Below, piece after piece: positions 12,306-37,151 of a DNA stretch of 41,873 bases. The translations under genes and the position numbers were made by a program. The stretch is from an uncultured bacterium (lineage in GTDB: Bacteria; Patescibacteriota; Minisyncoccia; Phycocordibacterales; CAJBMK01): NCBI GenBank assembly GCA_903954165.1, contig CAJBMK010000088.1, positions 1 through 41,873 of the forward strand, written 5' to 3'. Within the stretch, counting starts at the first letter, position 1. Each line of letters begins with the position of its first letter. The notes under the pieces are model-generated. The model saw nothing but the letters and a program-made list of their open reading frames with translations. It was not told where the DNA came from and searched no databases.

Positions 12306-13976
12306 ATGAAAAAAAATCCCGCAATTCGTGTTGAATTTTTGGTATCAGATATGAAACAAAAATATGCATATGTTGTTTTTTTCATAGTATTACTTACAGC
12401 CGTGCTGTTTTATTGGGGCTCAAGAATTCAATCAGTTTCGGCGTTACAAACGGAACAGGCAAAAATTTCCGGCTATGCGTGGTCCTCAAATATCGGCTGG
12501 ATTAGTATGAATTGTCCGACAATAAATTCGTGCACATACGGCGTTTCGTTTGATGTAAAGACCGGTCTTATGAACGGTTATGCCTGGTCTTCAAATATCG
12601 GTTGGATTTCGTTTACGGAAAGCGATTTGATGCAATGTCCCGTTTCGGAATGTAAGGCTGAATTCAAACTCGCAAACGGTACAATGAAAATGACCGGGTG
12701 GGCTCGCGCGTTGTCTCCAAATAAAAGCGGAAATTCCGGCTGGGACGGTTGGATACGGCTTGACGGGGCTACCTATGGCGTGACTGATAATGGCGGGGGA
12801 ATAATAGGCGGATATGCGTGGGGTAGCGACGTCATTGGCTGGATTGATTTTACCGGCGTAACATATAATCCTTCAGATATTCAAACGGGACTTTCGGTGT
12901 CTTTGACGGCAGACAGAGATACGTATATTTTGACTTCGGTGAACGATTCCTTTACGCCAGTGTTAACAGCCGGGATTAAAAATTATTATTCGGGGGAAAT
13001 ACTTTCGTATAGCTATACCTGTTTTGACGGTGACAGTATGCATCCCGTGGCTCCCGAGACCATTACAATTCCAAATACAATGATTGGAAGTGACGGAACG
13101 TTTGTGGTAAAAGAAAGTTTTGATTTAGAAGCTAAGAATGCGTGTTCGTACGCGACCGTTGGTGACAAAAAACCGACCGTGTATGTGTACGGTAACGCCG
13201 GCCGGAGCGGAAACGGTTCCGTAAATATGTATATTAATAGTTTTTCCTGTAACTCGGATAATAAAGTACTTGCCGAAACAAACGGTAATTCTAAAGCGAC
13301 GTGGTCCGTCCGGCCCGCTTCCGGAAAAGGCTCCCTTAGTAATATGCACTGGACGACAAGCGGTCTAAGTCCGGAAATTATTGGCAATACAGAGACGTTT
13401 AGTATTAATAATTCACAAATTAGCGTAGCCAACCCGAGTACTATTGAAGTACGAATGACGTCGGGAAATTATGTAAACACAGCGGGAAAAACGTTTGTGC
13501 TTCCGGAATTAAAATGTTCATCAGTAACGGTTGAAAAAGATTGTCATCTCAATTTTAATGACATAACGGCTCGACCGAAATTGAAAATTATCATAAAAAG
13601 TGCCGACTCCGAAACGGTGAATCTCGATTTCAATAGCGCGTCGGATATTTCGTGTTACAAGCACGGATGGTCCACGATAGCGTTTGACGAAAACGTTGCC
13701 TTGCCCGCCGGGACAGATTTGGGAAGCGCAAAAATTACGCTCGCCGTCAACAATGCTTCACCGGATAATAAAGGTATCTACCACATCAATAGCAGTAGTT
13801 TGTCATCCTCCAATGCAATTCCAGTCCATTTCCACATAGATTCTCCCGTAAAATCAGGCCAGTATACGGTGTACATAAAAGCTACTTTTGATCAAGGAAA
13901 AAAATTAGAAAGAACCTCACTCCTCCCCGTCATCATCCTCATCACAAACCTCAATCCCAATTTCATCGAACGATAA
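12306..13976 (+). CDS. Secreted/membrane-anchored repeat protein (GYAW..GWI repeats plus a C-terminal module shared with the giant protein)
   Basis: The ORF is open from 12258 (GTG). ATGs occur at 12306 and 12351. Hydrophobic anchor YAYVVFFIVLLTAVLFYWG. Four G(Y/W)AW-x-GWI(S/D)F-type repeats at 12471-12855. The C-terminal ~360 aa are homologous to the last ~360 aa of the 18704-30823 protein. Confidence 0.75.
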   Translation: MKKNPAIRVEFLVSDMKQKYAYVVFFIVLLTAVLFYWGSRIQSVSALQTEQAKISGYAWSSNIGWISMNCPTINSCTYGVSFDVKTGLMNGYAWSSNIGWISFTESDLMQCPVSECKAEFKLANGTMKMTGWARALSPNKSGNSGWDGWIRLDGATYGVTDNGGGIIGGYAWGSDVIGWIDFTGVTYNPSDIQTGLSVSLTADRDTYILTSVNDSFTPVLTAGIKNYYSGEILSYSYTCFDGDSMHPVAPETITIPNTMIGSDGTFVVKESFDLEAKNACSYATVGDKKPTVYVYGNAGRSGNGSVNMYINSFSCNSDNKVLAETNGNSKATWSVRPASGKGSLSNMHWTTSGLSPEIIGNTETFSINNSQISVANPSTIEVRMTSGNYVNTAGKTFVLPELKCSSVTVEKDCHLNFNDITARPKLKIIIKSADSETVNLDFNSASDISCYKHGWSTIAFDENVALPAGTDLGSAKITLAVNNASPDNKGIYHINSSSLSSSNAIPVHFHIDSPVKSGQYTVYIKATFDQGKKLERTSLLPVIILITNLNPNFIER

Positions 13977-14150: not shown

Positions 14151-17100
14151 ATGAACGCGAAAAAAAACGCATGTTTTGTTTTAGGATATTTGGCTTTCCT
14201 GAATCAGAAATTTCGTATGAGGACGCGCGTTGTCCCTGTTCTCTTTTTTGGCGTCGGAATCGGTATACTATCGGCTGGTTTTTCATATGTAACTGCTGAA
14301 GCAAACGTCCCATCGTCTATTGTTTCCAAGGCGATAGCCGTCACATCTCCGGTTAATCTTGCTATTAATGCGGATTCAAAATCACGAACACGGGTTGAGG
14401 TGCTTGATGGTAGTCGTTGGGTTACGGTAAATTGGAGGGCTGAGGGATTTGAGCGCGGCGATACGTGTCTGGTAAATATTGCTTTTGCACCAACTTCAGT
14501 GGGAAGTCTCGATTCATCACATGTGTTTCAGAATATTAGTTATTTAAGCACTTTATTGGGTTCCACCGTAGGCACTAGCTGGGTAAAAGTTTCAAAAAAT
14601 ATTGTTCCCCAGAGTGTTACTATTTATCCGCGTATTTCTTGTGTTCATCAGGGTTTAACATACTCGGCAAATAAAGCTGTGTGCGTGGATTGTAATAGCA
14701 CATGGAAAGAAGAACCTGCAGTTCTTACGGTTGCTTCCAAAACATTCAAAAATGTTTTGTACGGACAGTCGGGGTATGAAGAAATTTACATAAAATATTC
14801 GGGTAATTTGAAAGCCGATAATGTAGTCGTGCGAGGATTAACGGAAGCCGGAAGCGGAATTACTAATGAAGGCGGTTCCAATATGCCCTGCGGAAGTTCA
14901 ATTTCGACCGACTGTGTTATTCGGGTGAAATTTACTCCGGAATTAGTTGCAAAGTCCGCATTGTCGAATTCCAATAATGTCGTTTCCGATCCTCGTTACG
15001 TTACGATAGATTATTTTAACGGCAAACAAAATATTTCCGTTCCTTTTTTGGTGACTACTATTTCAACGCCCAAAGCTACACTTGGTGTCAGTCCAAGTAG
15101 TCTTGATTTTGGTGTCGTAAATCAAAAAACAAGAGTTTCAAAGATTTTGAAGCTCAGTAATCAAGTCAAGGGAAGTCAGTTGACCGCCGTAACAATCCCC
15201 GACAGTATTAATTCACCATTCTCCATTAGCGAAAATTGTCCTGACACAATGTCCGCGGATAATTCATGTGATGTAAGTGTGGCGTTTGAACCGACTTCGG
15301 AACAAAAATATGTGAATTCACTTTCGGTCTCAGCGTCCGACGGCGTAACGACTCAAACACAATCAGTTCAGCTTCAGGGTGAATTACAATACCCAAAGAA
15401 TCCCGCGGTGCTATCGGTAGATACGGTTACGATGAGTGCGAAATCTTTTAAGGACACTGTGACAAAATCGGTTTTGATAAAATATAGCGGTGCGGAAAAT
15501 GCCACTATAGATTCCGTAACCGGACTCGGCAATGGCGTTTCTTTTGTCGGAGGCACATTTCCGGGCACCGGCGGAACATGCCAAAAAATAATCAGTGCCG
15601 ACTGTACGATTGTATTGAATTATTCTTTTTTAAATTCACAGAATTCGTCAGCTTTAGTGAAACCCGGTGGGAGTTCACCGGTGTCGTTTGTGATCGTTAT
15701 GAATTATGCAAACGGTGTATCTTCGGATGTTAAATCAACATCATTTTTGGTTAACACTTCCGTAATCGAGCCGAGGGGATTGTTGGCGACTAGTCTTTCC
15801 GATATAAATTTCGGCCAAATTTCGGGGTCGGCTTCAAAAATAATTACTGTCAGTAGTTCTGTTCCCGGTAGTCGACTTTCGAAAATAAAAGTATCTCCAC
15901 TCGAGAACCCGTTTAGTGTTAGCCAGGGGAGTGATTGTCGTGATGATGTAACTAATAGTCAGCGTTGTACTCTATATGTTATGTATAATCCTGAAGCCAA
16001 TACGACATCATCCGCATCATTCGCGATCACCACGTCAGACGGCGTGTCTCTACAAAGTAAGACCATTAATGTAATCGGTTCCGCCAAAGGGCTCATGAAT
16101 AGCCGAGGTCAGCAAATTGGTGCAACACCCGGCTCCGTGGTTTCAACTGATGTTGCTAAGGTGTCGATACCCCACGAACCGCCGGCTATTATTATTGAAG
16201 GCTCGACAGGGACTTCTGAAGTGTCTGTCGGTGATAATGGTACGGATCTGAATAATATTACTTTGCCGGATATAACTGAAGTGGCCACTGAAAAGAAAAT
16301 ATTTGAACTAAATGTGAAGCATGTAGGCATAAGTCCTGTAACCCTGACAAATATCTCAGAACTTAATATGAAAGAAGGTTTTCAATGGTTGGGAGGACAT
16401 TACCCCGGATTAGGGGGAACGTGTGGAAATGTTATATCAAGTAATTGCACTCTAATTCTTGAATTACTTCCTGATGCTAATCATGTTGTTGTTAACCATG
16501 CATTTAAATCACTGCATAATAAATCATTGCGAATGTTTTCTACTTATTTTGATTTTACATATGTTACTGATTCTCAAAAAAAGAAAACACGACTATTGGG
16601 CGTAAATCTCGATGTTTTTGCCCCAATGGTGGGTTCTATTAAGGTCGGAGAATACGCTCCGATATTTGGAGTATTAAAAGAAGGAGGAGAAAGTGTGACA
16701 AAGACGATATCTGTTGAAACAGATAGTGATATTAATGCATCCTTTATTACGGAGGGGGTAGAAAGTTCATCAAGAAATGTCATACCTATTTTAAAATCTA
16801 TTACACTTGAAGGATTGCAATCACCTTTTTCACATGCAGGTACGGATTGTAAAGAAGTTAAGAAGCCCTTTCCTAAAAAAATATGCGATGTAAAAATTAC
16901 CTATACTCCACCCGCTCTCGGTGAGTTGCGGTTTAAGAACGATATCGGTAATGTAATTCTTACCGCGACAAATGGTATTTCCTCGGTAAGTAGGGATTAT
17001 ATCTTAAATGCGACAACTATACCGAAAGAATTGTCCATAGATGTTTCAAAGGACGTTTTGATTGTTTATAATAAACTTTCTCCTGATAGTATTGAGGTCA

Positions 17101-18227
17101 AAGATTATTACATCAATCATCGTCCTGGCATGAATAAAGCGGCTGTAACTTCAATTAGTATTCAGGATCCATGTGCTGGTGTACCGGAAAAAACAACCAC
17201 ACTTCTTTACCCGAATCATGCCATTCACGATTATCAATCTGTTACCAAAGATGATTACTTAAGATTGATAAAAAATCCACTAACAACATACCTAAATAAT
17301 AATCCTACAATCAAGTATATAATCATGATGCCTGGGGTGCCGATGAGGTTTATTGGTGAGCCACATGGTGGATCTCGGTATGTATTTAGTATTCCAGATG
17401 ATCTTAGTAGTAATATCAGTGTAGGTAGTGCATATGAGCACAACTATAGCGGGCAGATCATCGACAGCATAGATAGTAATTATTTTGTACCTTCACTGTA
17501 TCCCGGAACAAGGGCTTTGATTACGTATGTCAATATGGTGGACAAAGATAAAACAATTGCATATATCGATAAATTAGAGCGAATGTATAAAGCGATGCCG
17601 GTTAAGTCTCTGATTATTTCTTCCAAAGATGTTTCGGGTTATGAAAAAGGCCTGTATTATGCTGACGGTTATACAAGTGATAAAATGTATCTTCATTCGA
17701 ATCTATTTGAACTGGGAGTAGAGCGTATGAAAAATTCTATTCCGGAGAGTCGTATTGTCCTTCATACAGATAGGGATAGTGTAAATGATTTAATTGGAAT
17801 CGATGGTTCGGCTCATCCCGCCATAGATGTAGCGGGATATTATGGGTGGGGAATCCATAACCTGGTTTATGGTGAAGAGTTTCCAATGTATACGCCTGAA
17901 AAACCTTTAAATCGAGTCAAGTTCTCAGGAAAGTCTGATTGGTACTTGATGATGACGGAAGAATCATTTAACGGAATTATCGGTGGTTCGGGCGGGCAGT
18001 CAACCTTTCGAACATGGTTTCATGAACTGGCTTTTGGGGGAACTAATTATTCCAATACTCCGGTTGCGGCTGTGGTTCATATTGATGAACCTGGAGGGGG
18101 ATCTACTAATTCGACTATTTTTGCGTGTTTCGATAAAGGTGAATTGCCTTTTGTTGAGTGTGCGTGGAAGTCTGTGACAAACTCAAATGCTACTGTGTTT
18201 ATCGGTGATCCGTTTATAACGCGGTAA
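14151..18227 (+). CDS. Large secreted protein: array of Ig-like (HYDIN/choice-of-anchor-D-like) domains plus a ~400-aa C-terminal globular domain
   Basis: 1,358-aa ORF. An alternative ATG at 14217 gives a textbook signal peptide (MRTRVVPVLFFGVGIGILSAGFSYVTAEA). Contains repeated ~100-aa units with a conserved ...C..VSV.F.P...... pattern, for example LDFGVVNQ...SISENCPDTMSADNSCDVSVAFEPTSEQ. The C-terminal domain starts at KDVLIVYNKLSPDSIEVKDYY and ends at FIGDPFITR. Confidence 0.8.
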   Translation: MNAKKNACFVLGYLAFLNQKFRMRTRVVPVLFFGVGIGILSAGFSYVTAEANVPSSIVSKAIAVTSPVNLAINADSKSRTRVEVLDGSRWVTVNWRAEGFERGDTCLVNIAFAPTSVGSLDSSHVFQNISYLSTLLGSTVGTSWVKVSKNIVPQSVTIYPRISCVHQGLTYSANKAVCVDCNSTWKEEPAVLTVASKTFKNVLYGQSGYEEIYIKYSGNLKADNVVVRGLTEAGSGITNEGGSNMPCGSSISTDCVIRVKFTPELVAKSALSNSNNVVSDPRYVTIDYFNGKQNISVPFLVTTISTPKATLGVSPSSLDFGVVNQKTRVSKILKLSNQVKGSQLTAVTIPDSINSPFSISENCPDTMSADNSCDVSVAFEPTSEQKYVNSLSVSASDGVTTQTQSVQLQGELQYPKNPAVLSVDTVTMSAKSFKDTVTKSVLIKYSGAENATIDSVTGLGNGVSFVGGTFPGTGGTCQKIISADCTIVLNYSFLNSQNSSALVKPGGSSPVSFVIVMNYANGVSSDVKSTSFLVNTSVIEPRGLLATSLSDINFGQISGSASKIITVSSSVPGSRLSKIKVSPLENPFSVSQGSDCRDDVTNSQRCTLYVMYNPEANTTSSASFAITTSDGVSLQSKTINVIGSAKGLMNSRGQQIGATPGSVVSTDVAKVSIPHEPPAIIIEGSTGTSEVSVGDNGTDLNNITLPDITEVATEKKIFELNVKHVGISPVTLTNISELNMKEGFQWLGGHYPGLGGTCGNVISSNCTLILELLPDANHVVVNHAFKSLHNKSLRMFSTYFDFTYVTDSQKKKTRLLGVNLDVFAPMVGSIKVGEYAPIFGVLKEGGESVTKTISVETDSDINASFITEGVESSSRNVIPILKSITLEGLQSPFSHAGTDCKEVKKPFPKKICDVKITYTPPALGELRFKNDIGNVILTATNGISSVSRDYILNATTIPKELSIDVSKDVLIVYNKLSPDSIEVKDYYINHRPGMNKAAVTSISIQDPCAGVPEKTTTLLYPNHAIHDYQSVTKDDYLRLIKNPLTTYLNNNPTIKYIIMMPGVPMRFIGEPHGGSRYVFSIPDDLSSNISVGSAYEHNYSGQIIDSIDSNYFVPSLYPGTRALITYVNMVDKDKTIAYIDKLERMYKAMPVKSLIISSKDVSGYEKGLYYADGYTSDKMYLHSNLFELGVERMKNSIPESRIVLHTDRDSVNDLIGIDGSAHPAIDVAGYYGWGIHNLVYGEEFPMYTPEKPLNRVKFSGKSDWYLMMTEESFNGIIGGSGGQSTFRTWFHELAFGGTNYSNTPVAAVVHIDEPGGGSTNSTIFACFDKGELPFVECAWKSVTNSNATVFIGDPFITR

Positions 18228-18281
18228 TGAGTGAAGGTCGACGAATATAAATAGTAGTTACAACAGGTTAATAAAGAACAT

Positions 18282-18647
18282 ATGCACAAAAAAATAAAAA
18301 AAATATACTTCTCGATATTGATACTATTAGTACTGGTATGTGTGGGATACTATTTGTATCAAATAAATTCCGGTAGTGGCTTAATTTCTGTACATAAAGA
18401 AACGACGATTAATTCTGATGCTTTGGCTCGTATGGTAGATTTGCAGGATAAACTATTTAAGAATGAACGAGAAATCTCCAGTTCAACCATAGACGCGATG
18501 AACGCTTTAAAAAAACAGTCGGCTGATTTGAAAAAAGTCGATATGGAGGAGCAAAAAAAGAGAAGTGCGTATGAGGCTGCGGTAAATAAAAGCAATATTC
18601 GTGAGATGACTATTCCGGGCGGGCGCTATGATTTTAGTCCGAACTAG
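18282..18647 (+). CDS. Small single-pass membrane protein with a coiled-coil-like tail
   Basis: 121 aa. N-terminal TM IYFSILILLVLVCVGYYLY followed by a charged helical region. Tightly spaced between the two large genes (gaps of 54 and 56 nt). Confidence 0.55.
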   Translation: MHKKIKKIYFSILILLVLVCVGYYLYQINSGSGLISVHKETTINSDALARMVDLQDKLFKNEREISSSTIDAMNALKKQSADLKKVDMEEQKKRSAYEAAVNKSNIREMTIPGGRYDFSPN

Positions 18648-18703: not shown

Positions 18704-21700
18704 ATGAGTTCCATCAACAAAATAGTCAAAATAATTGTGTATACTCTCGCGGTACTTCTGTGTATATTGACACAGTCTTCCGTGTTGTACGCACAAACAT
18801 CAAATTCTGGAACTCTAGAATTCCTTGCGGGATTTGATGGGGACTTTCGTGATTACTCACACAACACCTCAAGGCCGATGACCGTGGGTAATTTGGTTAA
18901 TCCAATATTTGACGGCCCGACTCAGAGTGATGGTTGGTTACCAAAGTTTGGTTCCGGCACTATGAAACTAACCGGAGGAACCGGCGGCTCTGATTCATCG
19001 GGAATCTCCTTTGTTCCGCAAAATAATAACTCGCAGGGAGAAATTAGTCTAGGAACGGGGGAGTTTACTATAGACTTTTGGTTTTATCCTTACGGCCTCA
19101 AACATAACGGGCTGGAATTTTGGAAAGAGTATAACTCTAATCCTACTAAGTCCACATTAAGCAAACCTCATAATTTATTTTATGCAATCCAAAATCAGGT
19201 CAATTCATTATTCCTATTAGATACCATAAAACTTGCTCGCTTTAACGGAGGTTACAAATTTATAGTTTTTCAGAACAATAGCAGTTTTGAAGTTTCTTCG
19301 AATTTATCTTCGGATATAGTCGAAAATCAGTGGAATCATATCGCGATTCAAAGAGTCAATTCTAAGGACGGTTCGTCGTTTGTCGTATCAATAAACGGCA
19401 AGGCTGGCACGGTGGTGAATAAAGCTTTAGACTTTTCTTTGCCGAAGATTAACCGGTTGTATTTTGGTCAGCCTCAGGTGATGAATCCGCTTGGCGACAT
19501 CGATGAGTTTAGAATTATCAAGGATAAGGCACTGTGGCCAGGGGCTGCGGCGGGTCAGGCTTATATTATTCCAACGACAAGCGCAATCACACAGGATGTT
19601 TTGAATTCTGCTCCCGCATATGATGTATCTTTCCTAAAGATAAAACCTGAAAATATTTCATCGTCATTTTTGCTGCATTTTGATACAAACCTGTTGGATG
19701 TTTCGGGTAAAGAGCCGGTCATGTCTTCCGGTGTCGTGCCTGTCGTTTCGGTCGGGCAAAAGCAAGTGGGAACTGGGAGTGCGTCTTTTAATAGTACAAG
19801 CGGAACGGTGACCTATGATACCGGAGTGGCACTTAGCGCGACAGATGATTTTACTATTGATTTTTGGGCATATCCGAGAGGTTTTCAAAAAGATATAAAT
19901 AAATCACTCGTTTTACTAAAATTGTCAGACGGAACGACGAATTATTTTCTGCGGACGCATATATATAGTACGTTTTTGAACACTCAGTTACAATTCGGTC
20001 CGCTTTCAAGTGTGGTAGATCCGACGTGGTATAACTCTATGCTATCGGAAGGTACATCACAGTCAAGCGATAGTCTGTACAGAATAATGCTGAAGGAAAA
20101 GACATGGAATCATATAGTTATTCAAAGGTATAAGGGAGAGCTACTCTATATAATCAACGGGGCGGCATCGCGCAACGCCTATTTTATGAATAATGTTAAT
20201 TCCAGATTTGCTCTGACACCTTTTTCCGGTAAATCTCTAAGTCTGAGTATGGGTGGAGTTATTCCGATTACCGGCACGCAAGCCATTGCAGGCGAAGTAC
20301 CTGTAGCATTTGACGGATACATTGATGAGGTAAGAATTACAAAAGGAGCATTGTGGCCTAATGTGCAAAAGGATGATCAGGTTGCGTATGTCCCGTCTGT
20401 TGTCGGCGATACTGTAAAAAGTTCAAATCTTGCAATATTCGACAGGTCGGTTGAAGCATTTATGGCGGCGGACACCAATGTAATTCCCGGAAATATTGCG
20501 TGGTTTGAACAGGCTTTCTCGGCTGTTTCAGGTACAAGTGTTGAAAGTAATCAATCGGAAACTGTTCCCGCGCGAACGATTACGAGTGAACAGCTTTTTT
20601 CACGCACGAACGGCGCGCCTTTTTATACCGAATATTATGATAGCGGGGATAAGCTCGTGGCGTCGGCTATCTGGGCCGGGAGCGGTGTGACATCGGGAGA
20701 CAAAAAAATTAAATACAGCGAATACTTTGAAGACAGCGGTTTGTATCAGGAAACATTTTATTCTCCAAACGGCGCGGTTACCGATATATATCGCTATTAT
20801 TCAAAAGCGGACGGTGGAAGACTTTTCACACAAATAGAGAATCGTAATGGACTCGAACGATACCGACGCTATTCTGCAGACGGTGATGAGCAGTATAGTC
20901 ATGAATATCGCAACGGCGCTTTTGTGTATGCCAAACGAAAAGCTGTATCTTTGGACGGAATTACACAGAATGTTGTGTGTTTTTCGGCCGACTGTTTGAA
21001 TTTTGAGAGAAAAATTATTTCTTCCAATTCTACCGTTGTCTATTCGGTCACGGGAACCGCTTATAAATTCACTATTACGGACTACAAAGGCGGGAAGATA
21101 TTATTCCAGAAAGAATCTGCGGGCACGATTGGGAATAACGGCTCCGTTGTGCCTTCTTATAGAAAAGTCACTACCTATTCTTCAAACGGTGCGACGCCGT
21201 CAACCGAAATTGTAATTAACTTTTTGGGTAGTCCTCAAAATACCGCGGTCTTAAAAACATATAGTACTGATTCTTTGAGTGTATCGTACGGCAAAATCGA
21301 CAAGGAGGAAATGTGGCTGGTTGATTCTAGTTTTAATCCGACGGGACAACGAATGTATAAAATGTCGTATACATACAATTCCGACGGAGTTTTGGTTTCA
21401 AAATTAAAGGAGGAAAAAACTCAGCTTGATTTTACTACAACGACATACCGCCCCGATGATTCAGTGAAGAAGCTTAAAAAAATTGCGGGCACTATTTATT
21501 CGGACGGAAGTTTTGGAACAGTTACCGAGTACAGTTTTGATCGAAATAATAAGGAAGTTGCGCGTGTCGTCACGGCATTGAAAAAAGGGTGGGTTATAGA
21601 AAAAATAGATCGTTATACTCTTACTGTTTTGGCAAGTCGGACGACGTTTGATACGGATGGTAGTTGTCCGATCAGGGGCGACTATTTTGAAAAAGGTAAT

Positions 21701-24700: not shown

Positions 24701-27700
24701 AACACTAATTTTTCAAAGACTGCCCAAACGTATACGTTTGTTTCGACCGACCCCGACAAAGACAATTTGTATTATCAAATTAAATGGAATGGAGATTCAA
24801 AACTCGAAATACAGCCGTTAACGGGAAGTATTGCTTCCGGTATCGCTGTGTTGTCGAGCCAAACCTGGCCAACCGACGGAGCATTTACTATCGAGGCTCG
24901 CGCTATTGATACAAGCGGAGCGATATCCCCGTGGGGTAAGCTCGTTGTAAATATTTCGAACAATTCGGCGCCACTTGCACCTGTAATCACATCGGCGTCT
25001 TCAAATACGAATAATCCGCTCCATTCGGAAACCTATTTGTTCAAAAGCACTGATCCTGACGGCGATAATCTGTTTTACGAAATACAGTGGTCTGGAAAAT
25101 CGGATGATGTATACGGTATCGTTCGTGTTCCCGCAGGAAATGCATTCGTCGCACACAACACAAATCAAAGCGCGAACAACACATGGCCGAAAGTTGGCAC
25201 GTATACGTTCATTGTCCGTGCGGTTGATGTTCACGGATCGAAATCCCCGTGGACCGCATATTCGCCTGAAATAACTCCGCCCGGTTTTGATTTTTCATTG
25301 CGCGGTCCGGATCTTATCACAATTATCCAAGGTAATTCCGCAGACGCAACAATCGTAAAAAATGTGGTTGAAGGTGATGCAAGCGAGGTTGTCCTTACGG
25401 CAAGCATAAATAAAATATCCGGATCGCCGGATTTGACTGTGACGCTTCCGCACAAGACCGACTGCACGCCGACATGTAATGAAGTAGTTCAAATTTCTTC
25501 GGATAATTTTGTCGGTGTGAATATAGCTAAAGTCACGTATTACACACTTACGGTTGTTGGTACGGCAAAAAACGATTCTCTCATAAAACACACTATATCT
25601 ATACCGGTGCGATTTGTTCCGGCGCCACGTGTTGTGCTTACCGCAAGTCCAAATCCTGTTTTGGATACCGCGATAGGAGATTTGGAAAGTTATCAATCGA
25701 CATTAATGTGGACATCAACCGGCGCAAAGTCATGCTCCGCAAAATCTGATCCTGTCGGGGTCTGGGCTGGAGTGAAAAAGTTGTCCGGGAGTGAAACTAT
25801 TACGATGGATAAGTATACGTTGTTTACCATTACGTGTACCGGTGAAGGTGGTAAGGCTGATGCTATTGTTGACGCGGATGTAATACATTCGAAAGCGCTT
25901 TCGGTCCTTCTTACCGCAAATCCATCCGCAGGACGATTGGTAGACGGTTCGTTTGAAACCATGCTGACTGCGTCATTAAAAAACCAAACCGGAGACGTTA
26001 AATATCGCTTCAATTGCGAGGGCGGTCCCGAATTAAAATCGCAAAGATTAATTACCGCACTGGTTAGCGACGATTCGTTTACGTTCAAGTGTAATTACAG
26101 CTTTTCGGGTATTCATCAGCCGACGGTGTTTGTGTATGACGATAATAATCCAACCATTCCTGTCGTGGCTTCGAATTTGGTATTTACGGACGGGCTCGAG
26201 GTGGTATTGGAAGCCGTACCAAACAAAGGTGCGATTCCGTTTACGCCTCTTTTACAGGTAAAATTTCAGAATTATAATTCACCGGTAAAATATCACATCA
26301 ACTGCAACGGAAGTACTCTGCCGGCGAATGAGAATGGCGTAAATGCAATTTCAACAGCGGTAAATTCGACAACGGACGGCGAGTACAGCTTCTTTAATGT
26401 AACCGATTGTACCTACGATACGGTGGGTCAAAAAACTCCGACAGTATTTGTCTATGACGATAATAATACGAGACTTCCGGTTATTGCTTCAACAAAAGTT
26501 ACCGCGATTGTACCTCCGCCGGTTGTAGGTTTCGATTTTTCTCTTTCCGGTCCAAAAGAAATTGTTTTGACCCAGGGAGCGACAACAGAAGTTGAAATAT
26601 CAAAGGATTTGGTTCAAGGTGTCGGCGGAAATGTCCATCTTGCACTTTCGGTTGCGCCGATTGCGGGAGGACCGAATGTGACGGCCACCCTTATAAATTC
26701 GACCGATTGTACGCCAACATGCGCGGAAACCGTCCGATTGTCCGCGGATAATTCTTTGGGAAATAATGTGACTGATATCAAGAAGTATTCGCTTACCGTC
26801 GTCGGAACCGCAAAAAATGACAGTACAAATACCCATACGTTAATTATTCCGATACGATTGGTGCCGGCACCGCGGGTAACATTAACGGCGTCACCAAATC
26901 CGGTAGCGGAAACGGCTGTTTCTCCTCTCGCCCCCTACGAAACGGTTTTGGAATGGTCTTCTATATCGGCGACTTCCTGTACGGCGTCATCAGATCAGCC
27001 GGGACTTTGGACGGGCGACAAAAAAATATCAGGCAAAGAAAAAGTGGCACTATCAAAAAATACGAAGTTTAGTATTGTATGTGTCGGCGACGGAGGAGAG
27101 GCAAACGCATCGGTTTCGGTTGTAAAGCTTGGCGCCAAATTATCCGTTACTTTGAAGGCAAATCCCGCTACGGGCGCTTTGTCGAATAATCGATTTGTTA
27201 CGACATTGACCGCCGTATTAAAAAATGAAGATGGCGCCGTCACATATTCTTCCAATTGTAACGGTGATAGTGAGTTATTGCCGGTGACAATAAAATCCGC
27301 CACGCTTATTGACCACGCATTTACGTTTACTTGTACGTATGTAAATTCCGGAATTTTCCTTCCGACCGTATTCGTCTATGACGATTCAAACGTCACTGTT
27401 CCGGTCAAAGATTCCGCGCACGTCTTTGTGTATGATCAGATGACACTTTCTTTGACGGCTAACCCCGACGCAGGAACTGTTCCGTTTACATCTGAAATGA
27501 AAGTGGATTTAGGCAATTATGTTGCACCCGTTTCATACACGTATAATTGTAATAACGGTTTGGCACCGACGATTCCTGTACGTCCGGCAACTATGATCGC
27601 GTCGAATGTTTCAAGTGCGAACGTCTCACAAAACACCGGTTCGTTTACATTCTCATGTACGTATGTAAAAATCGGTTTGAATAATCCGACAGTCTTCGTC

Positions 27701-30700
27701 TACGATGCCTTTAATACCGACAATCCATTGATCGCAACAACAAAAATCACTGTTGTCGCCGCCGATACAAATCGTCCGCCGTCGAAACCAATAATCGACG
27801 GCCCGAGCAGTGGATTAATTAACAGTGCACTCAAGTACAACGTTGTTTCGACCGATCCGGATGGCGACCAAATCTATTACGAAGTGACGTACAAAATAAA
27901 TACTTCCGCCGAAACGAATCCGATTTCTCGTTTGCCGTTTTTAGGGTTGGTGGAGTCGGGTACAATTCAAAATCAGGATTATGCATGGACCGGTCAGGGA
28001 TACTTCATTGTGTTAGCTCGAGCGATTGACATCAAAGGCGCGACGTCTGACTGGGGTTCGTACAACGTAAACATTAAGCAAAACGAGCCTGAGCCGGAGT
28101 TTGAATGGTATGGAACCGATGTGTACGAAAATTCAAGCGGTTCGTTGCCTTCAGATTTTGTGAATCATTATCATCTTATTCGATACGACGGGCCGACAAA
28201 AATAACATCATACTTCCCGGATGAGGCCGGAGTAGCCGGTACGGTGGGCGTAAAAACGTTGGTTGCCAAAACTAAAATTGATATTCTCACTGAAATCGGC
28301 GACAGTAAAACCGCTTACGGCGGAGACCCGATGGTCAATACAAAAACCGGCAATTACGTCTTCTCGCATGGAAACATCAAACAGTGTACGGACAAAGCTT
28401 TCACAAATTGTACGCTAATAAACGACAGCGATGTTGGTTCACCGCTTCCTCCAAAAGGTATGGGTAAATATGAGGCGAAATATGGCAAATATATTTTGTC
28501 TACCTTAACATTCTCAAAATTATTTGAATGGTATGGCGATAGTATTTCTGGCGAGCCGGGAGTTTTGCCGACCGACTTTAGGAATAAGTATTTCATTTTG
28601 AGAAATACCCTTAATCCGATGACCGCCACGTATTACCCAAGCGAGGAAGGTGTGGAGGGTTTGCCGGCGACGAAAACATTTATTGCTTATACAAACAAAG
28701 ATTTATTGACCGACACCGATACCGCCAATACCGCATTCTATGCGAAAAATTCCGTACAAACAGGAAACGGAGGATATTATTTTTCACACGGCAGAATAGT
28801 CCAATGCGACGATCCGCAATTTACCGTTAATTGCAATATTGTGAATGACGGAGATGTCGGGCAGGAATCTGGCGGTACAAAAAAGTATAATCCAAACGGC
28901 GGTCAATATATTCTCGGTACTCATACATACCGTCTTGGAACGGCTCCCGTAAATCATCCTCCGACAGCGCCAATAATTACCGGCCCGAATAAAGGTTCGG
29001 TGAATGATAGTTTGTTTTTCAATAGCGTTTCGACCGACCCTGATGGCGACCAAATCTTTTACAATGTAACGTATCAGCTCGATCCTTATATTGAAATAAA
29101 CGTTATTTCAAGACTGCCGTCCGAGGGTTTAGTAAATTCAGGAACAAGCCAAAATCAGGGTTATCGTTGGACAGGTCCCGGAGCTTTCATCGTAAAGGCT
29201 CAAGCTATCGACAGCAAAGGCGCCACATCCGAGTGGAGTGAATACAGTGTAAATATTTCACAACAGATCGAATCGCGATTTAATTGGTACGGAAAGAGTA
29301 TTTCGGCGAACGGTAATGGTCTACCAGAAGGTTTTGTGAACTATTACCATCTAATCAGAAAAGATAAAACCTCAGATACAGTAACCTATTATCCGAGTTC
29401 GGCAGGTGTAACGGGTGTTTCGGGTAAAGCTGGAGTTACAACATTTATTGCATCTACAAACGCCGATATTTTGGTTGATAATTATCCGTACGAAACAGGC
29501 TTTGGTGCCGAGCATACTATTTCTGTGGGACCCTATACATATGTTTTTTCACACGGCAACATAATCCAATGCGACAACCTGCAATTTACCGATAGTTGCA
29601 ATACTGTGAATGACGGAGATTTCGGGCAGGAATCCGGTGGCACAAAGAAGTATAATCCAAACGGTGGCCATTACATTCTCAGCACAAATACGTACAAATT
29701 ACAGCCAGGTAATAGTGATGGATCTAATACAACACTTCCGGTCACTTTGTCGGCAACTCCAGATCACGGTTCTCTTGAAAATTCTTCATTTACTACAACG
29801 CTAACCGCACATCTAACTTCGGGGGAATATTCACTTCCAGTCGCATACCAATATAAGTGTTCTGATAGTGAAGGTTGGAAACCAGATGCCGAAATTTCAA
29901 CATCTGTGAATGCAAGTAATGGTTTTGAAATCAAGAAATCAGACGGTAGTCCCGCATGTTCTTATCCTAGCGGAGGAACTTATACACCTAGTGTTAAGGT
30001 GTACGATAGCTCTAATCCATATAGGGTAGGAACTGCAACGACAAACGTATATGTTGCAGAGTTTATTTGTAACGTTAATGGAAGTGTAACTGAAGCTGTT
30101 GCTGGTAATGCCGGGGGTGCTACATGGGGAGTAAACAATCCTTTTAATGGTGGCGTATTTACAAAGATGGTTTGGAATATTTCAAATCTAGATTCATTGA
30201 ATGGGGCACCTTTGGTAAGTATAAATACGGAAGGTTCGTATTATATCCCGAATCAGAATATAAGTTGGTTGAATATGAATAATACAATTAACAATATTTT
30301 GGTTTCACTTCAATCAGGTGCGTATACATATATTGGTAAAACATTCAACATTCCTGCTATTTCTTGTCCGAGTGCGTCATTGGTGAAAAATTGTACACCG
30401 AATTTTGCTCTCGTGTTCAAGCCATTGGAAACAAAAATGAAAATAGTTATAAGTAGTGCTGATTCAGATCCTGTCGATATTCAATTGAAAAATCAAGCTA
30501 CTTGCATAGATACTGCATCGGAGGTAACTATTACTGAAGTATATATTGATGATGATAATACGGTCCGTAGGTTAAAAAGTGCGGGTGCGACAATTTCACT
30601 TAAACAAAAAGCGGATCGTGAATTGTATACATTAAATATTAGTGATCTAAACGCAACGGAATCTATTCGGTTTACAATTGATAATCCTGTTGTATCCGGT

Positions 30701-30823
30701 GATTACATTGTTAAAGTTAAGGCAATACTGCCTAGTCAAGGCAATTCTAGCCCGGTGGAAGTTACTTCTGAACCAATAACTATCCACATCACCAATCTCA
30801 ATCCGTCATTCAAAGAGCAATAA
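18704..30823 (+). CDS. Giant (~4,040 aa) multidomain secreted surface protein
   Basis: Uninterrupted 12.1-kb ORF, open from the TTG at 18686. The ATG at 18704 gives signal peptide MSSINKIVKIIVYTLAVLLCILTQSSVLYA/QT. Recognisable internal domains are two LamG-like domains, YD-like repeats, two transglutaminase-like cores, four DPDGD Ig-like domains and multiple Ig-like repeats. Confidence 0.88.
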   Translation: MSSINKIVKIIVYTLAVLLCILTQSSVLYAQTSNSGTLEFLAGFDGDFRDYSHNTSRPMTVGNLVNPIFDGPTQSDGWLPKFGSGTMKLTGGTGGSDSSGISFVPQNNNSQGEISLGTGEFTIDFWFYPYGLKHNGLEFWKEYNSNPTKSTLSKPHNLFYAIQNQVNSLFLLDTIKLARFNGGYKFIVFQNNSSFEVSSNLSSDIVENQWNHIAIQRVNSKDGSSFVVSINGKAGTVVNKALDFSLPKINRLYFGQPQVMNPLGDIDEFRIIKDKALWPGAAAGQAYIIPTTSAITQDVLNSAPAYDVSFLKIKPENISSSFLLHFDTNLLDVSGKEPVMSSGVVPVVSVGQKQVGTGSASFNSTSGTVTYDTGVALSATDDFTIDFWAYPRGFQKDINKSLVLLKLSDGTTNYFLRTHIYSTFLNTQLQFGPLSSVVDPTWYNSMLSEGTSQSSDSLYRIMLKEKTWNHIVIQRYKGELLYIINGAASRNAYFMNNVNSRFALTPFSGKSLSLSMGGVIPITGTQAIAGEVPVAFDGYIDEVRITKGALWPNVQKDDQVAYVPSVVGDTVKSSNLAIFDRSVEAFMAADTNVIPGNIAWFEQAFSAVSGTSVESNQSETVPARTITSEQLFSRTNGAPFYTEYYDSGDKLVASAIWAGSGVTSGDKKIKYSEYFEDSGLYQETFYSPNGAVTDIYRYYSKADGGRLFTQIENRNGLERYRRYSADGDEQYSHEYRNGAFVYAKRKAVSLDGITQNVVCFSADCLNFERKIISSNSTVVYSVTGTAYKFTITDYKGGKILFQKESAGTIGNNGSVVPSYRKVTTYSSNGATPSTEIVINFLGSPQNTAVLKTYSTDSLSVSYGKIDKEEMWLVDSSFNPTGQRMYKMSYTYNSDGVLVSKLKEEKTQLDFTTTTYRPDDSVKKLKKIAGTIYSDGSFGTVTEYSFDRNNKEVARVVTALKKGWVIEKIDRYTLTVLASRTTFDTDGSCPIRGDYFEKGNESIVRYSIVGTCDSGKITYVYSYMVPGGKSVAYKTEVRSIFTGVLISTPTNDELFQTKSAEARYFKPSGLLSWALNEADTVFAVTKLILSKYIADVKAEADSNKKLSLYYDYADELSWAVKSVTNHFHSNSTVKNNDRTFEESALPWVVPAGQSITNKQIYGFYIKLGGIESNASNARLAFIDMDPANVAELQAKLAAATSYADLEKWPKQMGKFDSLGNTDGSGLIVGTDNNWKIFSAKNSTDRTTRLTVEELTRPDPATNRIVESFMQSSSGLLLKIKKSANKLTPDEVIKIFYSYFYDQYYFTYEHDLAGVAQTLAQTMSRPGGNCQEFAVTAATLLRSIFVSLGMPEEAKNVGLATVTVTVSPTSDTATLGHIGVVYKNTNDSLTYIESIYLFQGMGATVPLETYPEITIEKNRLSKLLSPNKNIDGWKVNMSSYSLVGTLPVGSENSSSVGNSIYPINDVASYIEPHDPKIEALVSVMYPFIPRLFEQSKEGLAEYVHSVLTPYFSYDSSEPDGKPWEKVAQILDGVVGTDGTVAPGSIKGDCDELAFVEASVLQNLLEGRYIMRNLAPAKAKLAASEDVMLFAIRKDANSAVAHMFPGVVTYMNNNALTRVLPLDPQISAPQSTIDFRTMMDENMLFYANKAFGTVAVSSDDLSATVFKSKVDAPAGDEPAPSEKVVPKSYFDGDGKEISAEQAAELQVELARVEAESARIDQVDALIAATGKKLADFLAKNTELQSKIVEKLDAGTNTAVTPAVTNTNVPIIDNNNAGNLGTFGATKTDSAVPGSINTPGNFGTFGAEPSAPAAAGNGPSNFSYTFGATQPELTQPTLVQNMFTAPGGGPAPSVFTNVLNFIGGLFSGGPGINYSMYGSGGNTFSPSGIVTTFGNNPNLNITATPNVLYIPLAMPDSASMCPTGVTVSKMCSDVSGNVITTKPDNSFFVGKDSCASVAGSCSDDKLFYTGWVCNLGFTMSLDKKSCVPNNKPPLTPVITSMPANTNFSKTAQTYTFVSTDPDKDNLYYQIKWNGDSKLEIQPLTGSIASGIAVLSSQTWPTDGAFTIEARAIDTSGAISPWGKLVVNISNNSAPLAPVITSASSNTNNPLHSETYLFKSTDPDGDNLFYEIQWSGKSDDVYGIVRVPAGNAFVAHNTNQSANNTWPKVGTYTFIVRAVDVHGSKSPWTAYSPEITPPGFDFSLRGPDLITIIQGNSADATIVKNVVEGDASEVVLTASINKISGSPDLTVTLPHKTDCTPTCNEVVQISSDNFVGVNIAKVTYYTLTVVGTAKNDSLIKHTISIPVRFVPAPRVVLTASPNPVLDTAIGDLESYQSTLMWTSTGAKSCSAKSDPVGVWAGVKKLSGSETITMDKYTLFTITCTGEGGKADAIVDADVIHSKALSVLLTANPSAGRLVDGSFETMLTASLKNQTGDVKYRFNCEGGPELKSQRLITALVSDDSFTFKCNYSFSGIHQPTVFVYDDNNPTIPVVASNLVFTDGLEVVLEAVPNKGAIPFTPLLQVKFQNYNSPVKYHINCNGSTLPANENGVNAISTAVNSTTDGEYSFFNVTDCTYDTVGQKTPTVFVYDDNNTRLPVIASTKVTAIVPPPVVGFDFSLSGPKEIVLTQGATTEVEISKDLVQGVGGNVHLALSVAPIAGGPNVTATLINSTDCTPTCAETVRLSADNSLGNNVTDIKKYSLTVVGTAKNDSTNTHTLIIPIRLVPAPRVTLTASPNPVAETAVSPLAPYETVLEWSSISATSCTASSDQPGLWTGDKKISGKEKVALSKNTKFSIVCVGDGGEANASVSVVKLGAKLSVTLKANPATGALSNNRFVTTLTAVLKNEDGAVTYSSNCNGDSELLPVTIKSATLIDHAFTFTCTYVNSGIFLPTVFVYDDSNVTVPVKDSAHVFVYDQMTLSLTANPDAGTVPFTSEMKVDLGNYVAPVSYTYNCNNGLAPTIPVRPATMIASNVSSANVSQNTGSFTFSCTYVKIGLNNPTVFVYDAFNTDNPLIATTKITVVAADTNRPPSKPIIDGPSSGLINSALKYNVVSTDPDGDQIYYEVTYKINTSAETNPISRLPFLGLVESGTIQNQDYAWTGQGYFIVLARAIDIKGATSDWGSYNVNIKQNEPEPEFEWYGTDVYENSSGSLPSDFVNHYHLIRYDGPTKITSYFPDEAGVAGTVGVKTLVAKTKIDILTEIGDSKTAYGGDPMVNTKTGNYVFSHGNIKQCTDKAFTNCTLINDSDVGSPLPPKGMGKYEAKYGKYILSTLTFSKLFEWYGDSISGEPGVLPTDFRNKYFILRNTLNPMTATYYPSEEGVEGLPATKTFIAYTNKDLLTDTDTANTAFYAKNSVQTGNGGYYFSHGRIVQCDDPQFTVNCNIVNDGDVGQESGGTKKYNPNGGQYILGTHTYRLGTAPVNHPPTAPIITGPNKGSVNDSLFFNSVSTDPDGDQIFYNVTYQLDPYIEINVISRLPSEGLVNSGTSQNQGYRWTGPGAFIVKAQAIDSKGATSEWSEYSVNISQQIESRFNWYGKSISANGNGLPEGFVNYYHLIRKDKTSDTVTYYPSSAGVTGVSGKAGVTTFIASTNADILVDNYPYETGFGAEHTISVGPYTYVFSHGNIIQCDNLQFTDSCNTVNDGDFGQESGGTKKYNPNGGHYILSTNTYKLQPGNSDGSNTTLPVTLSATPDHGSLENSSFTTTLTAHLTSGEYSLPVAYQYKCSDSEGWKPDAEISTSVNASNGFEIKKSDGSPACSYPSGGTYTPSVKVYDSSNPYRVGTATTNVYVAEFICNVNGSVTEAVAGNAGGATWGVNNPFNGGVFTKMVWNISNLDSLNGAPLVSINTEGSYYIPNQNISWLNMNNTINNILVSLQSGAYTYIGKTFNIPAISCPSASLVKNCTPNFALVFKPLETKMKIVISSADSDPVDIQLKNQATCIDTASEVTITEVYIDDDNTVRRLKSAGATISLKQKADRELYTLNISDLNATESIRFTIDNPVVSGDYIVKVKAILPSQGNSSPVEVTSEPITIHITNLNPSFKEQ
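25277..27765 (+). repeat. Tandem duplication of a ~1.25-kb (~415-aa) coding block inside the giant gene
   Basis: Block A (25277-26510) and block B (26511-27765) are colinear. Both begin GFDFSL(R/S)GP, and both contain TDCTPTC, TVVGTAKNDS, LVPAPRV.LTASPNPV and two units ending PTVFVYDD.N. Confidence 0.85.
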
Positions 30824-30835: not shown

Positions 30836-30868
30836 CTACCCACCATTTACACTGGTGGGTAGGTTTGT
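30836..30868 (+). terminator. Putative intrinsic terminator after the giant gene
   Basis: 10-bp stem ctacccacca / tggtgggtag with a 7-nt loop, followed by gtttgtg. The T tract is weak. Confidence 0.45.
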
Positions 30869-37146: not shown

Positions 37147-37151
37147 CAAAC

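Follow-up and report, generated by a model that had tools for sequence, protein, structure and literature searches.

A C-terminal block shared by two exported proteins of a Patescibacteria bacterium, and a recurrent terminal motif, P-x-[FYW]-x-E-x-stop, as a candidate docking peptide

Background

Carboxylate-anchored peptide ligands are exemplified by the PDZ ligands of Tsp and DegS, the Y-x-F beta-signal of OMPs and the C-termini of chaperone-usher subunits. In the WxL/csc clusters of Firmicutes, several secreted proteins share a beta-rich C-terminal module without a transmembrane (TM) segment and are retained non-covalently at the surface, while TcpF and CofJ, secreted in a type IVb pilus-dependent manner in diderm systems, dock on a minor pilin by means of a short N-terminal peptide. 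The T9SS C-terminal domain (CTD) is described as an Ig-like beta-sandwich that ends otherwise unrelated secreted proteins and is not accompanied by a TM segment (PMC4804311). Pam pili are CPR-specific and consist of Ig-like surface proteins that are exported by Sec, share an operon and are joined by strand complementation, with no trans-envelope machine; their pilins have a nine-strand N-terminal sandwich and an internal linker strand that is donated into a truncated Ig C-terminal domain, and the systems are reported mainly in Saccharimonadia and Microgenomatia, with operon-encoded PapD-like chaperones that carry a C-terminal TM segment (bioRxiv 10.64898/2026.03.03.709456).

Patescibacteria (CPR) may constitute at least a quarter of bacterial diversity, and every member in culture is attached to other microbes. 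Little is known about the way in which their large surface proteins are displayed, and a motif acting without a TM segment would be a new handle. The DNA analysed here (the window, 41,873 nucleotides) came from a CPR/Patescibacteria bacterium and encodes two exported proteins, called A and G, that end alike.

Results

A homologous block at two C-termini

Gene A (maximal ORF at 12258-13973) and gene G (18686-30820) gave a single colinear BLASTP alignment between A210-572 and G3682-4045, with 131/385 identities (34%; E=1e-33, composition-based statistics). MAFFT alignment of both blocks left 127 identical residues in 342 aligned positions, and the last 16 residues were identical at 10 of 16 (PITIHITNLNPSFKEQ in A and PVIILITNLNPNFIER in G). 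An earlier sequence-only reading of this DNA had proposed such a colinear alignment, and the present data bear it out: the block coordinates it gave were right to within one codon, and its four quoted peptide pairs all lay in register in the MAFFT alignment. That reading had also assigned A 556 aa, which is correct if translation starts at M17; the maximal ORF, from a GTG, comprises 572 aa, and the start is most plausibly M32 (MKQKYAY...), giving 541 aa. Since the copies are only 34-38% identical in protein, they represent neither a recent copy nor a chimera. The features concerned were as follows:

12888..13976, + strand: C-terminal module, A copy (aa 211-572 of the maximal ORF plus stop; BLASTP against G, MAFFT)
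29732..30823, + strand: C-terminal module, G copy (aa 3682-4045 plus stop of the 4045-aa giant; BLASTP against A, MAFFT)
12351..12443, + strand: probable signal peptide or signal anchor of A (MKQKYAYVVFFIVLLTAVLFYWGSRIQSVSA; N-terminal hydrophobicity 2.85; predicted start and cleavage site)
18704..18793, + strand: probable signal peptide of G (MSSINKIVKIIVYTLAVLLCILTQSSVLYA; hydrophobic N-terminus; predicted cleavage site)

A hydrophobic signal or anchor segment was present at the N-terminus of both A and G, and the block was confirmed as real, terminal and carried by two otherwise unrelated exported proteins (BLASTP; N-terminal hydrophobic segments). The absence of a terminal TM helix from the module, likewise noted earlier, held up, in that no hydrophobic segment was found in the last 40 aa of A or G and the maximum C-terminal hydrophobicity (1.47 in A and 0.5 in G) fell below the TM-like threshold in both. 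The same is true of the statement that the module fits no known sorting signal, as no Pfam or NCBIfam model matched it. The last 40 aa of A and G had no LPXTG-type motif and no NCBIfam match to one, and for PEP-, PGF- and PEF-CTERM there was neither a TM helix nor a basic tail in A or G, nor an NCBIfam match at E<=0.1. The Pfam and NCBIfam libraries include T9SS CTD models, none of which matched A or G, the module even at E<=10. The WxL domain (two WxL motifs in a C-terminal domain of ~160-190 aa) was not recognised: the module lacked a WxL motif and had no WxL-family match in Pfam at E<=10. Querying Pfam (at the same cut-off), NCBIfam and the PDB sequences with the module turned up nothing significant.

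Composition of the block

The first ~108 aa of the block proved to be a repeat, probably Ig-like, with five copies in G, four internal (~2405, 2504, 2819 and 2919) and one terminal. Besides its terminal partner, A212-311 matched G 2404-2484, 2519-2590, 2819-2901 and 2919-3033 in BLASTP, and self-comparison of G revealed a mosaic of repeated domains. When AF2 was run on the two-sequence module alignment, residues 1-108 were modelled as an all-beta sandwich (pLDDT ~70); the tail was all-beta at low confidence (pLDDT <50), and the module model was therefore left out of fold searching. A Pfam search with sub-domain 1 gave no match. The parts of the block and the internal repeats were located as follows:

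12888..13241, + strand: sub-domain 1, A copy, the same Ig-like repeat as in G (BLASTP, MAFFT)
29732..30058, + strand: sub-domain 1, G copy, probable Ig-like beta-sandwich repeat (AF2; self-similarity within G)
25898..27748, + strand: four internal Ig-like repeat copies in G (aa ~2405-3021, interleaved with other domains)
13242..13955, + strand: lineage-private beta-rich tail of A (38% identity to the G tail)
30059..30802, + strand: lineage-private beta-rich tail of G (~248 aa, three conserved Cys; only self matches)

Two parts of the earlier proposal did not survive. It had described a terminal module and had named internal occurrence as the test of this; the four internal copies in G exclude sub-domain 1 as a terminal tag. 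It had further suggested the ~360-aa module as a sorting, anchoring or assembly tag. The module is not itself in wide use, its ~250-aa tail being an orphan: a word-index search of 5.8 billion proteins and HMMER, run exhaustively against 1.84 billion representatives, each recovered only A and G. The G tail probably consists of two sub-domains, of which the last ~140 aa are probably Ig-like, judging from sub-threshold Pfam matches (DUF4469, E 0.025-0.07; Y_Y_Y, E 0.1) and a weak hhalign score (P=0.002). One HMMER hit (P0003, E=6.8e-4) was rejected as a relative, being a repeat protein aligned on a 'GxYxLxLxA' strand pattern that reflects generic Ig/PKD-like similarity. Homology of the tail, minus its last 8 residues, to the two commonest C-terminal domain classes of the family described below was not established (hhalign 13% and 0.7%). 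The shared block is best explained as an anciently duplicated array, private to the lineage, in which a single Ig-like repeat is followed by the ~250-aa beta-rich tail and, at the very end, by a short peptide.

A conserved terminal motif

What A shared with its relatives lay upstream of the block, in an N-terminal repeat domain; this domain and the terminal peptides were located as follows:

12471..12878, + strand: 'GYAWSxNIGWISF' repeat domain in the N-terminal part of A (the only region in common with 1063 homologues; HMM)
13956..13973, + strand: terminal tag of A, P-N-F-I-E-R followed by TAA (fits the family-wide P-x-[FYW]-x-E-x-stop)
30803..30820, + strand: terminal tag of G, P-S-F-K-E-Q followed by TAA (fits the family-wide P-x-[FYW]-x-E-x-stop)

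The repeat domain defines an exported Patescibacteria family with more than 1000 members; the 1063 matches to A were restricted to its N-terminal domain, which had at least 568 relatives among GTDB species genomes. The family is recognised by an N-terminal signal peptide followed by ~130 aa with three G[YW]AWSxxxGW repeats and conserved Cys. A belongs to the family by its domain HMM match and by the invariant G/W columns in the alignment; the repeat-domain HMM gave no match in G, which is thus not a member, and both proteins end in the terminal motif (PNFIER* and PSFKEQ*). For a typical member (P0029), the AF2 model had a mean pLDDT of 91 overall and of 88 over the final ten residues, the tail coming straight after the final strand (E294-303); AF2 hence treats this tail as ordered in the monomer. 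A Foldseek search of the P0029 model against the PDB gave no informative global match, the best being propeller-plus-Ig sensor domains (TM ~0.22).

Judged from the sequences compared, the conserved element is the terminal peptide and not the 360-aa block. The sequence-only reading had singled out an 'NLNP.F' end; the P at -6, the aromatic residue at -4 and the E at -2 are indeed conserved far beyond this genome, and 'NLN' is private to A and G. The motif occurred on hundreds of exported Patescibacteria proteins. Among the 119 listed repeat-family members, 66 had the strict P.[FYW].E.$ end, 95 ended in E.$ and 14 carried a short x-P extension after the motif, and in a 52-sequence alignment E(-2) was at least 90% invariant. 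As about 15% of members have extra residues beyond the motif, a free carboxylate exactly one residue past Glu is not universal. In ORF calls from 81 loci, the strict motif ended 35 of 78 repeat-domain proteins, compared with an internal frequency of 1.95e-4 per position, and was found in 7 of 1185 other proteins (0.23 expected); five of these seven were complete, and all five had an N-terminal hydrophobic segment.

The motif also ends exported proteins without the repeat domain, G among them. A search with the penultimate 777 aa of G gave, as a by-product, an independent sample of 67 homologues of its PKD-like region; 4 of the 67 had the strict tag and 11 the loose one, none of them positive with the repeat-domain HMM. 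That search returned no orthologous giants of G, only PKD-level matches covering 12-21% of the 777-aa query. The 100 aa preceding the motif fell into at least eight groups without BLAST links among them, including Cys/Asp-rich, non-Ig segments. At the codon level, Glu was encoded 21 times by GAA and 21 times by GAG, Pro by each of its four codons, and TAA, TAG and TGA all served as stops, so that the constraint acts on the protein; the DNA downstream of the motif was unrelated between loci in both sequence and spacing. An N-terminal hydrophobic segment was present in 44/46 and 70/73 tagged proteins, as against 39% of untagged ones, and the last 40 aa contained a hydrophobic segment in none of 119 tagged proteins. 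Neither the tag nor the repeat domain has a Pfam or NCBIfam model, literature searches found no description of either, and the terminal motif has apparently not been described so far.

Genomic neighbourhood

The genes between A and G, and a hairpin past G, were as follows:

14151..18647, + strand: cluster genes B (1358 aa) and C (121 aa), neither with module or tag
30836..30862, + strand: hairpin CTACCCACC-loop-GGTGGGTAG, 13 nt past the G stop (read from the sequence)

B has ASH / choice-of-anchor D Ig domains, with only weak ASH/PapD-like Ig matches, and a 409-aa C-terminal domain without assignment; C has an N-terminal TM segment. C was considered as a homologue of the small 'EEKLxILxSL' proteins encoded upstream of family genes and was rejected, there being no phmmer match. 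The spacer 3' of A measures 174 nt. The hairpin past G may plausibly mark where the transcription unit ends; consensus scans for promoters and terminators did not rise above shuffled expectation and did not pick it up. An independent ENA contig carried the same A gene in the same gene order.

Among related loci, a repeat-domain gene was located upstream of pilB in 16 of 80 and of pilC in 11, and also upstream of prepilin genes; the 41.9-kb window contains neither pilB nor pilC. As to a processing enzyme, the window cluster contained no peptidase or transpeptidase gene, and none was a conserved neighbour in the 80 loci. At one locus (L035), the C-terminal domain and tag were all that a repeat-domain protein shared with an adjacent protein lacking that domain (last 149 aa, 87% identical), and the same arrangement was seen at L029 and L030. 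At L025, two tagged proteins had unrelated C-terminal domains and the same ...FEEI end.

Discussion

The explanation that we favour, tentatively and at slightly less than an even chance, combines the private domain array with P-x-F-x-E-x-COOH as a docking motif at the carboxy terminus. Once the protein is exported, its free end (the Pro kink, the aromatic residue, the Glu and the terminal carboxylate) would be bound by a common partner, and A and G, alike in terminal domain and peptide, would be held or put together at a single site on the surface. One candidate for the partner is the Trp-rich repeat domain, in which the family alignment shows no invariant basic residue that could pair with the invariant Glu; another is a gene product of the adjoining type IV pilus operons. 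A putative sorting, anchoring or assembly role is suggested by the distribution of the motif, from which we infer both a recognition element and its possible recogniser. A broader version, which we find rather doubtful, would make P-x-[FYW]-x-E-x-COOH an undescribed C-terminal sorting or docking signal across Patescibacteria, with the repeat domain or a pilus-operon product as receptor, in a TM-independent tethering or assembly system for which lineage-specific C-terminal domains such as the 360-aa module serve as matched adaptors. Such a system would extend to giants that resemble adhesins, G included, on the envelope of these episymbionts.

A serious rival to a docking peptide, and one to which we give a real though minority chance, is a purely structural end-cap spread by domain shuffling. 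Ig-like adhesin arrays would have been copied between neighbouring surface-protein genes and the motif inherited with the domain, the Pro ending the last strand, the aromatic residue tucking into the core and the Glu capping it, with no role in targeting or docking. The confident placement of the P0029 tail in the monomer speaks for this, and, the tail being ordered, packing in cis (as a structural cap or by cis-docking on the repeat domain) fits no less well than a free tag acting in trans. A V-x-V-x-I type beta-strand directly precedes the motif in A, in G and in the two largest classes, and the weak Ig-like similarity of the last ~140 aa would make 'GxYxVxV ... last strand' an ordinary F-G strand pattern. 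G itself is a mosaic of repeated domains, and most tagged non-repeat proteins have a C-terminal domain homologous to that of a neighbouring repeat-domain protein, so domain shuffling alone could explain them. A fold-specific cap, however, is not expected to be identical on different folds, whereas the same three residues stand at the same distance from the stop codon after the eight or more BLAST-unlinked groups, Cys/Asp-rich non-Ig segments included, and after two unrelated domains at L025; nor is a fixed distance to the free C-terminus, as in the 95 of 119 members with an E-x end, expected of a cap.

We consider it improbable that the motif is a covalent processing signal, that is, the site at which a putative extracytoplasmic protease or transpeptidase trims the protein or ligates it to wall, lipid or another subunit. 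An enzyme of this kind would function like a sortase or PorU, without a membrane-spanning signal. The restriction of the motif to exported proteins is in keeping with processing, the sub-class with residues past the motif (PLPxWxE[IV]xP...) could be an uncleaved pro-form, and C-terminal signals elsewhere, the T9SS CTD for one, are cut off by a sortase-like enzyme (PMC4804311). The single residue past Glu in most members nevertheless leaves almost nothing to cleave and no membrane-retention element, and the lack of a peptidase or transpeptidase gene in the window cluster and as a conserved neighbour at the 80 loci argues in the same direction. An artefact or DNA-level feature, whether assembly chimera, recent gene conversion or a nucleotide element such as a Shine-Dalgarno site or terminator, is barely credible. 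Positions -3/-2 are often [QEK]-E, which can be encoded as the Shine-Dalgarno-like xAGGAG; this reading of [QEK]-E-x-stop is effectively refuted by codon and downstream variability, since synonymous variation occurs at every motif position, A is followed by its spacer and G by the hairpin, and a Shine-Dalgarno site cannot account for Pro(-6) or the aromatic residue at -4. The divergence of the A and G copies and the independent ENA contig likewise count against an artefact.

If the docking explanation is true, surface-protein candidates become predictable from sequence, the motif points to a putative receptor or assembly factor, possibly tied to type IV pili, and a defined peptide is available for pull-down and structural work. 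The shared motif would account for the same ending on a protein of 541-572 aa and on a giant of 4045 aa. Were it only a structural cap, it would still define a large unannotated protein family, with the 360-aa module as a private domain duplication.

Comparison with known systems

LPXTG sortase, PEP-CTERM and PGF/PEF-CTERM systems resemble the present one in placing a short C-terminal motif on Sec-exported surface proteins with many passenger domains, and their substrates, as here, number several per genome and are often clustered. Sortase and exosortase signals have three parts, the motif being accompanied by a hydrophobic TM segment and a basic tail, whereas here the protein stops one residue past the motif, no tagged protein has the hydrophobic segment and no sortase or exosortase gene lies nearby. 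The T9SS CTD of Bacteroidota shares a terminal domain, here probably Ig-like, without TM segment and differs in its conserved unit, ~80 aa against six residues here; T9SS requires an outer membrane and Por proteins, neither of which Patescibacteria are known to have. WxL/csc clusters are alike in sharing a module within one cluster, but the WxL family is broad and the module here is private to one lineage. Pam pili, compared with A and G by description only, are likewise built from exported Ig-like operon proteins of CPR, and differ, as described above, in the donated linker strand, the truncated Ig domain, the groups they are reported from and the PapD-like chaperones. TcpF and CofJ share a short terminal peptide and a possible link to pili (the family gene is syntenic with pilB, pilC or prepilins in 16/80 loci), but their peptides are N-terminal, the motif here is C-terminal and the window is without pilus genes. 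Carboxylate-anchored ligands differ in that the pattern here is P-x-Ar-x-E-x and the organisms are monoderm-like, with no PDZ, Bam or usher partner identified. They have in common with the present motif that the register to the free end is fixed, that an aromatic or hydrophobic residue stands a few positions before it and that recognition takes place, or here would take place, outside the cytoplasm, and are considered, by analogy, the mechanism most similar to the proposed docking.

Gene cluster and the block shared by A and G

The window holds a Patescibacteria-like run of housekeeping genes (recD-like helicase, fmt, def, priA, murA, mreB and uvrB on the 5' side of the cluster; Nudix, uvrA, uvrC, ddl and glmU-like on the 3' side), into which four genes were found inserted after uvrB on one strand, their products all (4/4) carrying an N-terminal hydrophobic segment:

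12258-13976, +, A, 572 aa as maximal ORF
14151-18227, +, B, 1358 aa
18282-18647, +, C, 121 aa
18686-30823, +, G (the giant), 4045 aa
30836-30862, hairpin 3' of G

Elsewhere in the window, a 262-aa ORF between the helicase gene and fmt (2186-2974, +) matched part of a Mutator-family/MULE transposase profile only (Pfam 1.8e-7) and is probably the remnant of a truncated IS. The maximal ORFs of a DUF2339 multi-pass membrane protein gene (38301-40217, +; 1e-78) and a DUF3999 protein gene (40117-41547, +; 5e-9) overlap by ~100 nt, leaving the start of the latter uncertain, and two tRNA-Ala genes lie at 37074-37147 and 41596-41667 (+; anticodons TGC and CGC).

The sequence-only reading held that A and G end in a colinear block of ~360 aa (12888-13976 and 29732-30823, respectively). 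This was confirmed, residues 210-572 of A aligning with 3682-4045 of G by BLASTP (131/385 identities, E = 1e-33) and MAFFT giving 127 identities over 342 aligned positions, with all peptide pairs cited in that reading in register. Identity was highest at GKTF..P, K.KI.I.SADS, F.ID.PV.SG.Y.V..KA and the terminus (10 of the final 16 residues). Since protein identity is only 34-38%, the duplication is old and an assembly artefact is ruled out; the same A gene (one residue different), followed by a B-like gene, was present on a separate ENA contig. Neither module nor terminal tag was present on B and C. B is an exported protein with ASH / choice-of-anchor D / HYDIN-type Ig domains (NCBIfam 2e-16), the C-terminal 409 aa of which had no Pfam match and end in ...GDPFITR.

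Outside the block, G (18686-29731) is a domain mosaic comprising two N-terminal Laminin_G_3/ConA-like domains (Pfam 8e-12), a YD-like stretch rich in Tyr/Asp, a weak match to the transglutaminase core (E 0.007), a Gly/Pro/Thr linker of low complexity (~aa 1750-1900), four PKD-like 'STDPDGD' domains, a ~415-aa segment in tandem duplicate (2196-2609 vs 2608-3025, 45-55% identical) and a ~130-aa 'FEWYG...FSHG.I.QC' domain present three times. A search of 5.8 billion proteins gave no orthologous giant.

The first ~108 aa of the block, an Ig-like sandwich in the AF2 model (pLDDT ~70), are a further copy of a G repeat at ~2405, 2504, 2819 and 2919, and this part is therefore not confined to the terminus. 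The other ~250 aa (30059-30820 in G, 13242-13973 in A) are 38% identical, conserve three Cys, come out all-beta in a model of low confidence, and have no Pfam, NCBIfam or PDB-sequence match; sub-threshold matches to DUF4469 and Y_Y_Y, and an hhalign P of 0.002 against the terminal domain of another family, suggest that the last ~140 aa may be Ig-like. A two-copy profile recovered A and G alone among 5.8 billion word-indexed proteins, and an exhaustive HMMER search of 1.84 billion cluster representatives added one marginal match (E = 6.8e-4), a repeat protein aligned on a generic 'GxYxLxL' strand. Taken as a 360-aa unit, the module is thus private to the window's lineage, which rules it out as a general tag. 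The sorting-tag interpretation was partly supported: the module is a private duplication, and the six-residue terminus is a widespread motif, apparently not described before, with a putative function.

A conserved terminus on exported proteins

Searching with full-length A returned 1063 proteins, alike only over the N-terminal quarter of A (a signal peptide, then three 'GYAWSxNIGWISF' repeats), whose named sources were all Patescibacteria or Paceibacteria-type. A GTDB scan gave at least 568 relatives, and 80 loci were retained. Middle domains in this family are variable (PKD, CARDB, Big_2, Rha78A-Ig, Cys-rich repeats) and the C-termini nearly all alike: among the 119 members listed, 66 end in P-x-[FYW]-x-E-x-stop, 14 in this motif plus a short x-P extension (e.g. 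PLPEWEETAP), and 95 in E-x. A 52-sequence full-length alignment gave the consensus end VxxxxPxFxEx, with E(-2) at least 90% invariant. A ends in PNFIER and G, which is not a member, in PSFKEQ; of the NLNP.F terminus expected to be conserved in homologues, the Pro and aromatic positions held, together with the Glu at -2, and 'NLN' proved private to the A/G pair. Neither repeat domain nor motif has a Pfam or NCBIfam model, and literature searches turned up no description of either.

In our own ORF calls from 81 loci (1263 genes), an HMM marked 78 repeat-domain proteins (35 with the strict motif, 7 extended, 21 loose and 15 none). The strict pattern, with an internal frequency of 1.95e-4 per position, ended 7 of the 1185 proteins without the repeat domain, G included, against 0.23 expected; all five complete ones have an N-terminal hydrophobic segment. 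An independent sample, obtained with the PKD-like region of G, gave 4/67 strict and 11/67 loose motifs, on proteins of 437-1233 aa with signal-peptide-like N-termini, none positive for the repeat-domain HMM. At one such locus, L082, two large paralogues terminate in VNVVP[TK]FQEF and the 19 kb contain no repeat-domain gene. The 100 aa preceding the motif fell into 8 groups without BLAST links to each other (66 'TYTLxC' Ig-like, 30 'GxYxIxV' type, one of 4, the window pair, and four singletons, Cys/Asp-rich segments among them). N-terminal hydrophobic segments were found on 44/46 and 70/73 tagged proteins versus 39% of untagged ones, and no tagged protein has a TM-like C-terminal segment.

Also at L082 (5758-7122 and 8506-9939), a 454-aa protein between the two tagged paralogues, which lack the repeat domain, has at its C-terminus a hydrophobic segment followed by FRKRR, the classical anchor layout of TM segment and basic tail; next come genes for a PT-HINT protein and an apolipoprotein N-acyltransferase (Lnt-like), the latter immediately upstream of the second tagged protein.

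Gene neighbourhood and recurrence of the pattern

The repeat-domain gene typically adjoins nusA (opposite strand) and is followed by genes for 1-4 exported/TM proteins, then pilB (T2SSE; 16 loci), pilC (T2SSF; 11 loci) and prepilin-like genes. This order, from which the family appears to be part of a Paceibacteria type IV pilus neighbourhood, was seen at L014, L025, L026, L034, L037, L039, L041, L048, L050, L054, L067, L068, L074, L077 and L079; the window copy lies outside any locus of this kind. The last protein of several of these operons (~440-620 aa) ends in ...SWLEI or ...W[GA]EVE. Often (~20/80 loci), a small protein (~90-140 aa; N-terminal TM segment, 2-4 'EEKLxILxSL(S/T)' repeats) is encoded on the same strand immediately 5' of the repeat-domain gene, for example:

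L014, 2826-3164
L041, 9561-9896
L037, 9647-9973
L026, 9572-9976
L023, 7082-7423

C of the window is similar in size and topology, with no detectable relationship.

The A/G pattern, a repeat-domain protein sharing nothing but the C-terminal domain and tag with an unrelated exported neighbour, recurs at L035, L029 and L030. The L035 pair represents a far younger case, with 87% identity confined to the last 149 aa, and suggests that terminal domains are still being exchanged, or evolve in concert, within single genomes:

1527-3947, 806-aa protein without the repeat domain
5237-6232, 331-aa protein with the repeat domain

At L025, the end ...FEEI occurs on two tagged proteins whose terminal domains are unrelated.

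Possible roles of the terminus

We favour, tentatively and at somewhat below even odds, a carboxylate-anchored docking peptide, because of the motif's fixed register to the free C-terminus, its independence from the preceding fold, its restriction to exported proteins and its recurrence on neighbours. Candidate receptors would be the Trp-rich repeat domain, acting in cis or trans, or some product of the pilus operon; A and G, which have this lineage's terminal domain and peptide in common, would then be handled by one partner. The main rival, to which we give about one chance in three in our own judgement, is a structural cap at the end of the protein, spread through the shuffling of domains. 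In an AF2 model of a typical family member, P0029 (64 sequences, mean pLDDT 91), the repeat domain and terminal Ig-like domain are both confident, residues 294-303 form the final strand, and the tail LPVFQER is modelled confidently without strand structure (last ten residues pLDDT 88); Foldseek gave low-TM matches only, to propeller-plus-Ig sensor domains. This model, in which the tail is not treated as disordered, cuts both ways, favouring a cap or cis-docking and weakening a purely free trans-acting tag.

A covalent processing signal seems improbable, lacking a candidate enzyme; neither B nor C resembled a processing enzyme in Pfam and NCBIfam comparisons. A DNA-level feature or artefact is effectively excluded: synonymous codons alternate across the motif (GAA and GAG 21 each, all four Pro codons, TAA, TAG and TGA as stops) and the downstream DNA is unrelated, which places the constraint on the protein.

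Comparison with known systems

The A/G element gave no profile matches to, and lacks the defining features of, LPXTG, PEP/PGF-CTERM, T9SS-CTD or WxL; unlike LPXTG and PEP/PGF-CTERM signals, its terminus has no TM segment or basic tail. By analogy, its working may come closest to that of carboxy-terminal peptide ligands such as PDZ ligands, the OMP beta-signal and chaperone-usher termini, and the cluster as a whole to WxL/csc clusters. The literature searches yielded a preprint on Pam pili, recently reported from CPR bacteria, in which Ig-like exported proteins are assembled by strand complementation without a trans-envelope machine (bioRxiv 10.64898/2026.03.03.709456).
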